Source: Bdellovibrionales bacterium | Lineage (GTDB): Bacteria; Bdellovibrionota; Bdellovibrionia; Bdellovibrionales; JAMPXM01 | Assembly (NCBI GenBank): GCA_043739185.1 | Contig: JAYUEN010000473.1 | Location: forward strand, 1 to 10,372 | Direction: 5' to 3' | Length of the DNA: 10,372 nt | Shown: positions 6,001 to 10,372 of the stretch, piece by piece | How positions within the stretch are numbered: the stretch's first letter is position 1 | Layout of the letters: the number at the start of each line of letters is the position of its first letter | Made by a program: the position numbers

Positions 6001-9000
6001 CTTTTCGGCTAAATGCACCGTTGAAGCGAATCTTCATCTTCGGCATATACTGCATTGACGGAACGACATATCCTAGCTTTTCAAGAAAGGCCTTTCGTAA
6101 TAAAACATTGTGCATGGTTTTACTTACCAGCACTACATAATTACGATTCACACCTTTTTCATCGACTACAGAAATTGTAAATCTAAAATTCCCTACTCGA
6201 GAAACTAAGTCTGCGAGAAAGCGATATTCACCAGATTCTTTTAATCCCAAACTATATCCGGCTAGATCGAGAGGCTTTGGCATTTGGTTATGCCACAGAT
6301 CCGTATTTGCATTTGGATTGAGAAGAGAAATATCTTGGCCTTGAGCCGCTAGTGCCGTGAGCTCATCAGGTAGGAGCACCCTATCTTTATAGACCACATC
6401 ACTTGCCTGTTGTTTATCGCTGGTTTTAGGAATCAAACCAGGAAAATCAATGGGCGAAGAAAGTCCCATTTGAGCTGAGAAAGTTGTTAAAAGAAGAAGC
6501 GACAAATTTTTAAAAGCGAAGCTTAAAGTTTTCATCGATCGTAGTAAATAATTGAAGACGTCGCATTGCACAAGGCAATTGTAAGTATTGGAAATTTTTG
6601 CAAAAAAAAGCCCCTGAATTTCTTCAGAGGCTTTTAATATAATTCGCAAAAGTGCACCGGCGAAAACTCGCCTACGCAGTTTTAATTACTTAGAAACTTG
6701 AAAAAGACCAGTGATGATCTTGTTCATATGTTCTGGGCCAACGCCATTTGCTGTCGCAGCTTTATCAATAAGAGAATTCAAGTCAGTTGAATCGCCTTGA
6801 GTTTGCTTTTGAAGAGCAGCTTTTACGTCAGTGATTGAAGAACCGATAAGTTCTTTTGAAAAATTGTCATAATCTGCATCGGTCATGCTAGATTTTGGAG
6901 TATTTTTCAATTGAACAGCAAGACGTGCAACTTCACGGCTACGTTCTACGCTCAAACCAAATACGCTTTGGATGTGCTCAGCTGAAGCCTTCACATTGAA
7001 TTCTTCTTTCAATGCAGAAAGTTTCTCTAAGTCTTTTGAATTAGCTGAAGTTTCTTCAAATACGATTCCGCTGTATGGATCTTGATATTGATTTCCACCG
7101 ATGTAATCAAGGCCAGAGAAAATATTTGCAGCACCTGAGTTTACGTAGTTAGAAATATCAGTACCTACTGACCAACCGTCAATATAGTAAGCTTCGTAAG
7201 TGCCGTTATTATCGACAACGATATAACCATTTTGAAGTGTATCAGTCTTAACGAGAGCAAGATTAACACCTGCATCAGTATAAGCGCGATATACGAATTC
7301 AGAAGCTAAATCTGAATGGCTAAAGTAGACTCCGCCAGTGCTAGTAGAGCCGCCGCCGCCGCCGCAAGCAACTAAGCTTAGCAAGCTAAGAGCAACAATT
7401 GATTTCGATACGAAATTTGAAAAAGACATATAGATCCCCTTTTGTGGTGTCATTTTCGGATTAATTTCCGATTTGTAACCTTGTAATGAAAAGACTGTGC
7501 CAAAACAAGTTATGTTATTTTGACACCACCTTTAACTCACAGCGATGCTTAAATGAGAACGAATTGAAAATGAAAATTTGGTAAAAATTATCAATTTCAA
7601 AGTTTGTGACTTTCAAATTGAATGAAAAAAATTAGCTCAAGCTCGATGCGACATTCGCGTTTTTTGCAAATTCTTAATCCTTAGATGGGTGCAAAGGGGT
7701 CAAATCGACCCCACAATGCTACGAACTAATTGGGCATACTAATGATAGCGCTCATCCCCGAAGTGACTTTATAGAAATAGTAATCGAGCATAATGGTAGC
7801 ATAGCGATCAAGCTGCCCAGTATGACCTGAATCTACCCATCTTTGATGTGCTGTCTGTGGACTAATTCCCATAAACAAAACCTCGTAAAGCGCTGCCAGA
7901 AGCCCAGTGCGATCTTTTCCGAATTCGCAATGAATGAAAACCGGCTGCATTTTGGGATCACTCATAATTGAAATCGCTCGAGTAACAGTGGCTTGTTGCG
8001 TCAAGGTCATAGTGAAACTACTAAGTCGCTGCGGAACCCAGTTCATCCCAAGATTTGCGGCTGTGAGTTTCTCTTGCGCCATTACTTCATCTAATTCGCC
8101 TGGTTCAACGGTGCCAACAACAGAACCCAGTAAATCATAATCGCCACCTTGAAGATCAATGATAGTTTTTACCCCCGCCAATTTTAGTGTACGCAAATCT
8201 TCAGGCTGAGGCCGGCCACCGCGGTAAACTTTTGCCGCATCAATTATAAAGAACTTAGGAATATCCTGAGATGCCTTAAGTAAGGCCGCTGATTTTGTCT
8301 GATCAGGCTCAGCGAATGCATTTGCCAATAAACCAAATAAACATAAAAACAAGCTAACAGCTTTAATCGACTTCACAAATCCCCATTTTTTAATTACTTA
8401 ACCCAATGCACTTTCTGAGTCGCTTCTTGTACGGACTCAATCTCTGCGCAGAATTTTTTCATTAAAGGTTCAGCAAAGTCACGCGAAAGAATAGAATAAT
8501 CACTCAATGCGCAAGTTTTAACCGGAGTATTTTCGTTGGTTACATTAACTGCAAAATGAATCAAACTCGAAACTGGTGAAAGCGTGGCAATACTAATACT
8601 TAATTTTCGATCCAGACAAAAAATATCGTCACCTTCTCTGCGAAAATTTTTGGCCTCTTGTGGAGCCAATTCCCGAACGATTTCAAGTGCTAACCCCGCT
8701 AATAATCTCTGCATTAATACGCCTGAAAATAGCGGAGTTGAAAACTTCTCAACTATGAAATGAAGCATTAAATTGGATCTGATTTCACTGCGTGCCAAAA
8801 AATCTTCGCCGTCCACCATATGCTCAAAGGGAATATCACAGGCTCCTTGCCAGGCTACAATCGAATCCCCCATGAGAGAATATTCTAAGTAAGCAAATAA
8901 GGATCTAAGCTGAGTACCATCATATTTGAATTCTTTTTCTATCCATTTATATTTCATTTTTCATCCATTTGGTTGCTATGTGATTGAGCTTGGCTGCTCT

Positions 9001-10372
9001 GATAAAGCGCTTGCAAGATTCACATTGCTGGCAGGGTTTGAGAGCGTCAAAGTAACAGGGCCAAATATTTTCAAAATTGATCTTAAGCTCAAGGCCTCGC
9101 TTTATAATTTCAGTCTTATTGAGATGACTCGTAAAACATTTCACTTTCACCGCATTGGCGGTAGAAAACTTAAATGATTCATTTAGACTTTCGATAAAGC
9201 CGACAGAATTGTCTTTGAAAGTCGCGGCCTCTTCAGCGTTGAATCCAGGTATGATCCAATCTGCATTTAGACTTTCAGCGTATCCGGCAGCAATATTGAG
9301 TAAAATGCCGTTTCGATTTGGGACCCATACTGACTTTGCAGTCTGTTTTGAAATCCTCAAATTATCAATTCGGACCTCATTGGTGGGTACCTTTAAATCT
9401 CGATCAATGAGAGCCGAGCCCCCAAAATCAAGCATCCATTTGAGATCAATACTGTGATGTTTTATCTTAAGTTTACGACAAAGCTTCTTTGCAAAATATA
9501 ATTCCCGCTTAGCCGCTCTTTGTCCATAGTCGAAAGTAAGGGCCAATACCACGTCAGACACGCGAGCCGCTTCATGAAGATTCACACTCGAATCAAGTCC
9601 TGCTGACAATAAGACGATCGAGCGCATTTCACTTGATCCTATTTTTTAAGGCTGCTTTTGGCTTAGCGTGCTTCTTAGTCACTTTAGAAAGCTTCGGCTT
9701 GGCGGGCTTTTCTTTATCTAAACTTTGGCGTATGGTTTTGGCTCGTAATAAAACCGCTCTCCCCAAAAGCGCAGTGATCCCACTTTTTTCGGCCAAATCG
9801 TTCGAAAAACTCTTAATTTTCTCAAATGATTTTGAAAGGCTCGAAAAACTCGAATTCGGAAGCTCCAATAGCCGTTCGTCAATTTTACCTGAACCTGCTT
9901 TTGGTGCCTTTTTTGATGATTTGCGGACAGATTTAATCTGCGTCTTAGCAGCTATCTGCTTCACTTTTTTAGATTTTTTTCTCATGGGACTAGCTACTTA
10001 CCAGTCCTCATTCACTTTCACAAGATTTTTGATCTGGAGCTGAATGCTGCGATTTCCGAGAAATTCATTCCAACTGATCTCAACTAAAGCTTCTATGGAA
10101 TCACCAACATTATAATCTGTACTCTTGGGTCCAAACCAAATTGCCCTCAGTGATGGAGCACCCTTGGCTGCCAATTCCAAACTCAAATGTCCACCTTTAA
10201 GGCTTTTAACTTTTTGAATTTTTGCACCCACAAGTTTAAGAAGTGGCGTCGCATTGCCAACTCCCAAGGGTACAAAATGATCATACCAAAGCATAAAATC
10301 GAGCGAAATTTGCTCAAGCCTTACTTCAGCATCATATTGCAATACTTCATTTGTAGATGGTCTTGATTCACT

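Follow-up and report, generated by a model that had tools for sequence, protein, structure and literature searches.

DUF366 (PF04017) is likely a working part of the synthesis of 7-cyano-7-deazaguanine (preQ0), from which the tRNA bases queuosine and archaeosine are made, in organisms with a QueC of the EE-type, defined here by the signature W-V-P-x-R-N together with N-x-E-E-x-x-x-F-x-D-N. A place for DUF366 in preQ0 synthesis, proposed in an earlier note on this DNA, is supported by co-occurrence of unlinked genes, by fusions and by QueC swaps. If true, this assigns a function to a family whose structure is solved but unannotated and brings a further protein into a pathway regarded as complete with FolE, QueD, QueE and QueC, and the annotation of queuosine and archaeosine synthesis would be corrected across many bacteria, archaea and viruses. 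The co-occurrence also suggests that in many microbes two proteins are needed where textbooks assign one. Literature searches for DUF366, COG2029 and PF04017 found no paper on the family.

The queC and DUF366 genes and the EE-type signature

The window, i.e. the whole stretch of 10,372 nucleotides that was analysed, carries DUF366 overlapping queC, as noted earlier (Table 1), and this 11-bp overlap may couple the translation of the two genes. The window QueC scored 167 bits with PF06508 and 172.6 with TIGR00364 (cut-off 150.3) and is the single full QueC match in the genome, while DUF366 reached 193.8 bits with PF04017 (cut-off 29.9), covering positions 1-183 of the 184 in the model. FolE, QueE, a QueD-like protein, QueF, Tgt, QueA and QueG are encoded in the same genome, in agreement with the list given before, as are a biotin ligase and LplA. 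A plasmid comparison and an Rfam search gave no match.

Table 1. Features of the queC and DUF366 locus in the window.
Feature	Position	Strand	Size	Basis
queC, EE-type	8947..9627	-	226 aa	PF06508 and TIGR00364 profile scores; motifs from translation
DUF366 (PF04017) protein	8394..8957	-	187 aa	PF04017 profile score
Overlap of queC 3' end and DUF366 start	8947..8957	-	11 bp	
N-x-E-E-x-x-x-F-x-D-N codons (QueC residues 130-140)	9208..9240	-		Pattern match; used as type marker

The QueC domain begins at residue 3 of the reading frame, and no class II glutamine amidotransferase (GAT) domain is fused to it. With the canonical QueC of E. coli and B. subtilis (cluster 1 of PF06508, PMC13329287) it has in common the PP-loop (SAGLDS), the zinc cysteines (191, 199, 202 and 205), VPxRN with its essential Arg, the essential Tyr following the first Cys and the aromatic-x-Asp whose counterpart in Cap9 binds the base; like the canonical enzyme, it exceeds the TIGR00364 cut-off and is the sole QueC beside a full Q pathway. 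However, neither element of the canonical signature, YxQxHxxE with its His and YPDC (PMC13329287), is present. The window protein instead reads YGQRA, WVPNRN and N-A-E-E-A-A-T-F-K-D-N, i.e. the His is lost, F-x-D-N stands for YPDC, a Trp precedes VP and there is an extra Glu at -5. The Lys in F-K-D-N is a rare variant of a site that is Pro in 112 of 121 EE-type proteins. In the alignment, all 121 lack the His (Ala or Ser in 120, a gap in one) and have F-x-D-N in place of YPDC, whereas the His was found in all eight canonical QueCs read; it is also missing from the QueC-like Cap9 (PMC13329287). The EE-type further differs in having DUF366 as a companion, for which the profile gave no match in the control genomes of E. 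coli and B. subtilis. The altered substrate pocket proposed earlier is not supported in that form: the second Glu simply stands where the canonical enzyme has an Asp, and the Arg, aromatic residue and Asp of base binding are intact.

The active-site signature of the window QueC is also that of the QueC domain of Gat-QueC from 9g-like phages and some archaea, which has W-V-P-x-R-N and N-x-E-E-x-x-x-[FY]-P-D-N without the His (phage motifs from three 9g-related phages, not from the 9g sequence itself), and both fall into one clade (100/99). Gat-QueC, described as biochemically uncharacterised in the relevant passages of PMC5699537, differs by its GAT domain and by its product, which is G+, whereas the window genome has QueF and needs preQ0. 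A p-AU of 0.26 neither shows nor rejects a single origin of the EE-type QueCs, the Gat-QueCs and the viral type. The view that the paired QueCs form a type of their own is upheld in that DUF366 is tied to one type, but the motif set is shared with Gat-QueC, which in 9g-like phages does without DUF366.

Co-occurrence, linkage and fusions

Among 201 genomes of Bdellovibrionota, the EE-type motif was present in 114 of the 115 with DUF366, and DUF366 in none of the 77 with a motif-less QueC; 111 of the 115 DUF366 genes lay less than 500 bp from the QueC motif. All 52 DUF366 genomes among 201 Planctomycetota had the motif (adjoining in two, unlinked in 50), and a third phylum had it in 67 of its 69, although the sampled genomes are related and the counts overstate their independence. 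DUF366 was also matched in M. jannaschii and M. acetivorans. Exceptions were one genome with DUF366 and no QueC (G172) and two with an EE-type QueC, a second QueC and no DUF366 match (G181, 95% complete, and G196, 93%); the latter two show that the motif set is not confined to partners of DUF366. Their second TGT, a TGT with a C-terminal extension, explains nothing about this exception. EE-type QueC is nearly always accompanied by one of two partners, a fused GAT domain or DUF366.

Adjacency, claimed before to be the rule, is not: besides the two cases in 52 Planctomycetota, queC and DUF366 adjoined in 42 of 80 metagenome loci, and queE stood directly 3' of DUF366 as often (47 of 80). The order queD-queC-DUF366-queE-folE was seen in 19 of the 80 loci, and queD-DUF366-queE-folE without queC in three, at the locus level alone. 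DUF366 tracks QueC, not QueE. Within family f19, QueE is orthologous across genomes with and without DUF366 (58-63% identity), whereas QueC has been exchanged (29-36%); at least six changes of DUF366 status are needed on a QueE tree with 33 rows; and QueE of DUF366 genomes falls into two distant groups (33-35% identity) with QueC of one type (46-49%). The tie to one QueC type is therefore stronger than first stated, given the unlinked Planctomycetota, the QueC swaps beside an unchanged QueE, and fusions.

Three QueC-DUF366 fusions were found (P0059, P0151 and L087/G110). In L087, a contig from one run crosses the junction without an indel, and contigs from a second study tile it. No DUF366-QueE fusion was found in a weak search. 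Three further records, in which DUF366 is joined to a peptidase (P0152), a piece of guanylate kinase (P0072) or Clp_N (P0053), are single-contig or unexamined and were left out of the count. In five Planctomycetota, the long open frames around DUF366 reflect read-through of GC-rich sequence and not fusion.

Viral DUF366 sits in deazaguanine clusters with folE, queD, queE, queC, queF or DUF6610, the last being DpdA4 according to the relevant part of bioRxiv 2023.04.13.536721. GAT fusions make up 78 of the 80 viral loci that have the EE motif and flanking sequence, and DUF366 is absent within 5 kb from all 78. The earlier statement that the paired QueC is of the changed type does not hold here, as seven of nine QueCs beside viral DUF366 belong to a different type, in which the canonical His and D-C are retained and only the Glu at -5 is shared; in a free tree the two types paired with DUF366 are not sisters. 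A complete virus (L099/G213) carries DUF366 as well as a GAT-QueC fusion. The idea of a viral DUF366 acting without QueC was dropped, as the six QueC-less records among 18 are fragments (5-49%), and MW495066, a presumed phage DUF366, is bacterial DNA and was left out of the viral set.

Fold and conserved residues of DUF366

In its predicted model (pLDDT 98.3), DUF366 has the biotin/lipoate-ligase (class II aaRS-like) fold. The sole PDB match at sequence level was 2DDZ (E 4.6e-31), in line with the earlier note, an orthologue-level match from Pyrococcus horikoshii with no assigned function, which may be PH0223. PH0223 is listed as self-interacting and nothing more (PMC1414084). A fold search of 48,161 chains placed 2DDZ first (Z 28.4) and members of the biotin/lipoate ligase family at ranks 2-19 (Z 13.1-9.7), with 1WNL at Z 13.1 and an rmsd of 3.1 over 159 residues; Foldseek agreed (E 3e-7). 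The likeness to these ligases, mentioned in the earlier note, holds at the level of the fold. An Atlas search returned DUF366 clusters only, and no tie to DUF366 was found for TK2145 and TK0647 in the relevant part of PMC6393311.

Compared with the biotin protein ligase/LplA/LipB superfamily (PF03099), DUF366 has the core fold, the N-D...K spacing and the G-x-N strand, but the identity is 10-15%, PF03099 gave no hit at E 0.1, and profile comparison with the biotin ligase and LplA of its own genome was not significant. D111, K118 and N138 align, weakly (E 0.033), with N-D...K...G-I-N of the Aquifex biotin ligase. By eye, the consensus has an acidic D-x-x-D segment instead of the GRGR loop, and a C-terminal ligase domain is absent, which makes the use of ATP by DUF366 doubtful. 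Over 128 sequences, D49, K118 and H134 are invariant, D111 is kept in 121, and His66, His134 and several acids are near-invariant or better. D49, D52, E70, Q83, D111, K118, S122, H134, N138 and K182 are kept from bacteria through viruses, whereas R107 is lost from many viral copies. No Cys is invariant (C40 in 107 of 128), so a glutaminase role is unlikely.

Proposed role and alternatives

The biotin/lipoate-ligase family couples a carboxylate to an amine via an acyl-adenylate. From the observed co-occurrence, linkage, fusions, fold and conserved residues we infer every step of the following chemistry, a tentative reading, the likeliest of those considered, to which we give somewhat less than even weight: EE-type QueC is partner-dependent, and DUF366 replaces the glutaminase domain, doing or feeding the amidation of CDG to ADG. 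EE-type QueC, with no GAT domain, would be inefficient alone at bringing in nitrogen. In the first half-reaction, from CDG to the amide ADG, DUF366 would do the work of that domain and may use the CDG adenylate or adenylate CDG itself, as the chemistry of its fold would allow; alternatively, it may supply the nitrogen for ADG formation. EE-type QueC would then dehydrate ADG to the nitrile, for QueF in bacteria or for the archaeal transglycosylase. The virus with both GAT-QueC and DUF366 is unexpected if DUF366 replaces GAT. A complex prediction of QueC and DUF366 with ATP and zinc scored 0.00 and counts for neither side.

That virus is accommodated if EE-type QueC makes ADG, an activated amide or, like Gat-QueC, an amidine but is unable to release the nitrile, and DUF366 completes the dehydration or elimination to preQ0, which we consider possible, though rather unlikely. 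EE-type QueC, Gat-QueC and Cap9 all lack the His, the latter two do not end at a nitrile, and the two histidines and the acids of DUF366 would suit such a step. To our knowledge, however, the biotin/lipoate-ligase fold has no dehydratase member, and the His is retained in viral QueCs that pair with DUF366. It is also not among the reported essential residues (PMC13329287). In favour of this reading, according to the relevant part of PMC6884629, phage 9g Gat-QueC made dG+ in a delta-queC strain and failed to restore Q, but the Gat-QueC sequences read are from relatives of 9g. Against it, the free G+ base deaminates spontaneously to preQ0 according to PMC5485725, which is why a G+ lyase would hardly be needed and a G+ ammonia-lyase was downgraded as the main idea.

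It is improbable, in our estimate, that DUF366 serves EE-type QueC as a non-catalytic subunit, activating, stabilising or regulating it in the manner of HisZ or the polymerase gamma accessory subunit. Both have the same fold and appeared in the fold search (HisZ Z 6.8, Pol-gamma B Z 8.4), and the strict one-to-one occurrence, the three fusions and the missing GRGR loop fit such a subunit. Yet the dozen or so polar residues kept from bacteria to viruses resemble an active site, and DUF366 partners two non-sister QueC types. More improbable still is a clean-up enzyme off the main path that hydrolyses or recycles leaked CDG-AMP or mis-acylated amines from EE-type QueC. Such side reactions are plausible, since Cap9 moves activated CDG onto protein amines (relevant part of bioRxiv 2025.04.06.647259), and G181 and G196 would find room here; however, near-perfect co-occurrence in three phyla with viral retention is probably tighter than usual for repair enzymes, and the 78 viral Gat-QueC loci manage without DUF366. 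That DUF366 serves QueE or is a mere passenger of a mobile que operon is very improbable and already largely refuted, as the frequent queE neighbour and the three loci without queC are outweighed by the status changes on the QueE tree, the two QueE groups, the 50 unlinked Planctomycetota and the fusions, found to QueC and, in a weak search, not to QueE.

We regard it as an even call whether there are two preQ0 synthase architectures, with QueC in one of them a half-enzyme and DUF366 a new, nucleobase-acting catalytic branch of the biotin-ligase fold that performs one of the two half-reactions; Gat-QueC would then derive from the same dependent domain by acquiring a glutaminase and have been redirected to archaeosine. 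The uncharacterised Gat-QueC would thereby be linked to a simpler two-gene system, and biotin-ligase-fold chemistry may extend to a nucleobase. The organisms concerned would span whole bacterial phyla, methanogens, Thermococcales and a lineage of large viruses.

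The overlapping gene pair and its QueC signature

In the window, queC and the DUF366 gene (Pfam PF04017) overlap by 11 bp, and a profile search identified this queC as the sole full QueC of the genome, which also encodes FolE, QueE, a QueD-like protein, QueF, Tgt, QueA and QueG. Counterparts of the lysine-rich ORF occur in relatives at similar size and place.

Genes of the contig around queC and DUF366
Feature	Coordinates	Strand	Remarks
recJ		minus	cut
118-aa lysine-rich ORF	9629-9985	minus	without family; between recJ and queC
queC	9627-8947	minus	PF06508 167 bits; passes TIGR00364
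DUF366	8957-8394	minus	PF04017 194 bits
Tyrosine/dual-specificity phosphatase-like gene	7726-8376	minus	secreted-looking; 17 bp after DUF366
1089-aa protein	3380-6649	minus	without Pfam match; precedes the subtilase
1074-aa subtilase	117-3341	minus	

PMC13329287 gives YxQxHxxE, VPxRN and YPDC as the canonical QueC motifs and Y35, R99, Y131 and Y189 as essential, with Y131F partly active; neither PF04017 nor DUF366 appears in the available part of its supplement text. Across an alignment of 121 QueCs of the same type as the one in the window (W-V-P-x-R-N with N-x-E-E-x-x-x-F-x-D-N; EE-type), the His of YxQxHxxE is missing, while all have Trp before VP, Asn at residue 130 and F-x-D-N for YPDC; positions 132 and 133 are Glu in 118 and 120 sequences, respectively, and otherwise Asp. 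The second Glu takes the position of Asp in canonical QueC. According to bioRxiv 2025.04.06.647259, Cap9 holds the base by Arg, an aromatic residue and Asp, all retained in EE-type QueC, which suggests that its substrate is still a deazaguanine.

Co-occurrence of DUF366 and EE-type QueC

Among 201 Bdellovibrionota genomes, 115 carry DUF366, 194 carry QueC and 120 match the DNA pattern N-x-E-E-x-x-x-[FY]-x-D-N. The motif is present in 114 of the 115 DUF366-positive genomes, the exception (G172) having DUF366 without QueC, and all 77 genomes with a motif-free QueC are without DUF366. Six motif-positive genomes are DUF366-negative: in G009, G139 and G167 the match lies outside QueC, in G059 QueC runs into a contig edge, and G181 and G196 are true exceptions, in which a wider profile gave no DUF366 match either and each of which has a second QueC of another type. 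Six genomes have neither DUF366 nor QueC, which may be one gap, the genomes being drafts; one of them, G015 (5 contigs, 100%), is also missing QueE and QueF. DUF366 lies within 500 bp of the QueC motif in 111 of the 115; in G125 (L268) it stands on the opposite strand to queC with its end cut short, perhaps by inversion or assembly error.

DUF366 occurs in 52 of 201 Planctomycetota genomes, of which 49 match the pattern (14 located inside QueC by coordinates or reading, the remainder assumed to be) and the other three carry a D-E variant, as manual reading showed. In twelve DUF366-negative genomes a looser pattern finds a match, each time outside QueC. QueC scores E 7e-56 or worse in DUF366-positive genomes and 2e-59 or better in the 142 DUF366-negative ones with QueC, except two fragments and G229, whose QueC is canonical on reading. 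DUF366 and QueC are within 10 kb of each other in just 2 of the 52 genomes, so their tie does not depend on adjacency. In a third phylum, DUF366 is found in 69 of 71 genomes, 67 of them with the motif, and both DUF366-negatives are motif-free; the genomes being related, all these counts overstate independence. Of four named controls that have QueC, M. jannaschii and M. acetivorans matched DUF366, whereas H. volcanii and S. acidocaldarius gave no match. A role of DUF366 in the synthesis of preQ0 (7-cyano-7-deazaguanine), tied to EE-type QueC, is likely.

Viral loci and the glutamine amidotransferase fusion

DUF366 is present in 18 viral records (three near copies) beside folE, queD, queE, queC, queF or DUF6610, the last being DpdA4 according to bioRxiv 2023.04.13.536721. 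QueC occurs in 12 of the 18, including all three that are at least 90% complete. Seven of the nine QueCs within 10 kb of viral DUF366 belong to another type, which keeps the His and D-C, with only the Glu at -5 in common; in trees, this type and most viral DUF366 form one clade each. These findings count against the earlier note's pairing of DUF366 with one QueC subclade and in favour of a functional tie between DUF366 and QueC.

Gat-QueC, a QueC fused to glutamine amidotransferase (GAT), has the same signature as the window's QueC in three annotated phages (W-V-P-A-R-N and N-L-E-E-A-G-A-Y-P-D-N, without the His), and both form a joint group (100/99; tree of 43 rows). A motif scan of viral contigs gave at least 120 loci, of which 80 with flanks were used and 40 without flanks dropped; among the matches listed, 78 of the 80 are GAT fusions, all lacking DUF366 in the surrounding 5 kb; of the other two, one is truncated and one is something other than QueC. 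This QueC domain is thus accompanied by either GAT or DUF366, with G181 and G196 (neither) and L099 (both) as exceptions. In L099 (10482-11945; complete 141-kb virus G213) the fusion overlaps the DUF366 end, after folE2, and no QueF match was found there. According to PMC6884629, Gat-QueC of phage 9g, a phage outside the three that gave the signature, made dG+ in delta-queC E. coli and did not restore Q.

A candidate viral DUF366 in L097 (MW495066.1, filed as Microcystis phage MaAM05) was rejected: its 30-kb region carries secDF, glyS, fabI, fliM and murJ and looks like a piece of bacterial chromosome deposited as a phage genome. This bacterial DNA gave the sole DUF366 match among 50,697 phage records. 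In large uncultured viruses (L098-L113), the deazaguanine clusters include DUF366 together with a gene of the phosphoribosyltransferase family, as well as unassigned proteins of 230-290 aa, which may represent new transglycosylases. Campylobacter phage CP20 (L243), of a group with ADG in its DNA, has a QueC with F-P-D-C, a Tyr-to-Phe change. A further QueC type (L-V-x-G-R-N and A-N-S-G-Y-R-D-C; L073, L075, L089-L092) is the second copy in family f17, G181 and G196, and two copies adjoin a sugar epimerase-like gene. G181 and G196 also encode a second TGT, about 695 aa long, whose C-terminal extension resembles a methyltransferase (L264:2971-5058, L265:2786-4858).

Fold and proposed role of DUF366

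The DUF366 model (pLDDT 98.3) matches 2DDZ, a Pyrococcus horikoshii structure, best (Z 28.4); for this predicted structure, the next 18 matches are all from the family of biotin, lipoate and octanoate ligases (Z 13.1-9.7), ahead of all others. Besides 2DDZ, a profile search gave only Aquifex biotin ligase (E 0.033), whose N-D, K and G-I-N align with D111, K118 and N138. All 128 DUF366 sequences compared share D49, K118 and H134, and D52, H66, E70, Q83, R84, D111, S122, N138, E172 and K182 are nearly invariant; 16 viral copies retain most conserved residues, R107 excepted. DUF366 behaves as a member of the biotin/lipoate-ligase fold and is probably an enzyme. It is not a biotin ligase; an acidic segment replaces the GRGR loop. 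DUF366, COG2029 and PF04017 as whole words retrieved no paper, and no mention of such a QueC partner was found, in literature excluding subscription journals and bioRxiv supplements; as these and neighbourhood databases lay outside the scope, specialists may already know the linkage.

The usual chemistry of this fold is amide formation via an acyl-adenylate. Because this matches the first half-reaction of QueC (CDG to the amide ADG), and because DUF366 alternates with a glutaminase domain, we tentatively favour nitrogen incorporation, in which DUF366 would form the amide through an acyl-adenylate. The main rival, somewhat doubtful, is that DUF366 finishes the nitrile: the His is missing in enzymes not ending at the nitrile, but it is retained in viral QueC partners of DUF366, and free G+, the archaeosine base, turns into preQ0 spontaneously (PMC5485725). 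An accessory subunit is unlikely, and a clean-up enzyme more so.

Least probable of all is that DUF366 is a partner of QueE or a passenger. Outside Bdellovibrionota, in 80 metagenome loci, queE comes next after DUF366 in 47, and the order queD-queC-DUF366-queE-folE is found in 19; QueC lies directly upstream in 42, all with the motif, and is absent despite room in 24 and cut off in 14. To tell the partner of DUF366, QueE was searched in 30 chosen genomes, 24 of which matched. Within family f19, QueE is 58-63% identical between DUF366-positive genomes and DUF366-negative genomes with canonical QueC, whereas QueC is only 29-36% identical between them, and DUF366 status changes at least six times along the QueE tree; DUF366 thus goes with QueC rather than with QueE. 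Three proteins (P0059, P0151, L087) are QueC-DUF366 fusions; the short junction of P0151 may reflect a frameshift, whereas the L087 junction is crossed without indel by one contig of run X1, from which L087 may derive, and overlapping contigs from another study tile it. Three operons (L127, L136, L154) read queD-DUF366-queE-folE without queC, which their relatives L121, L124 and L130 retain.
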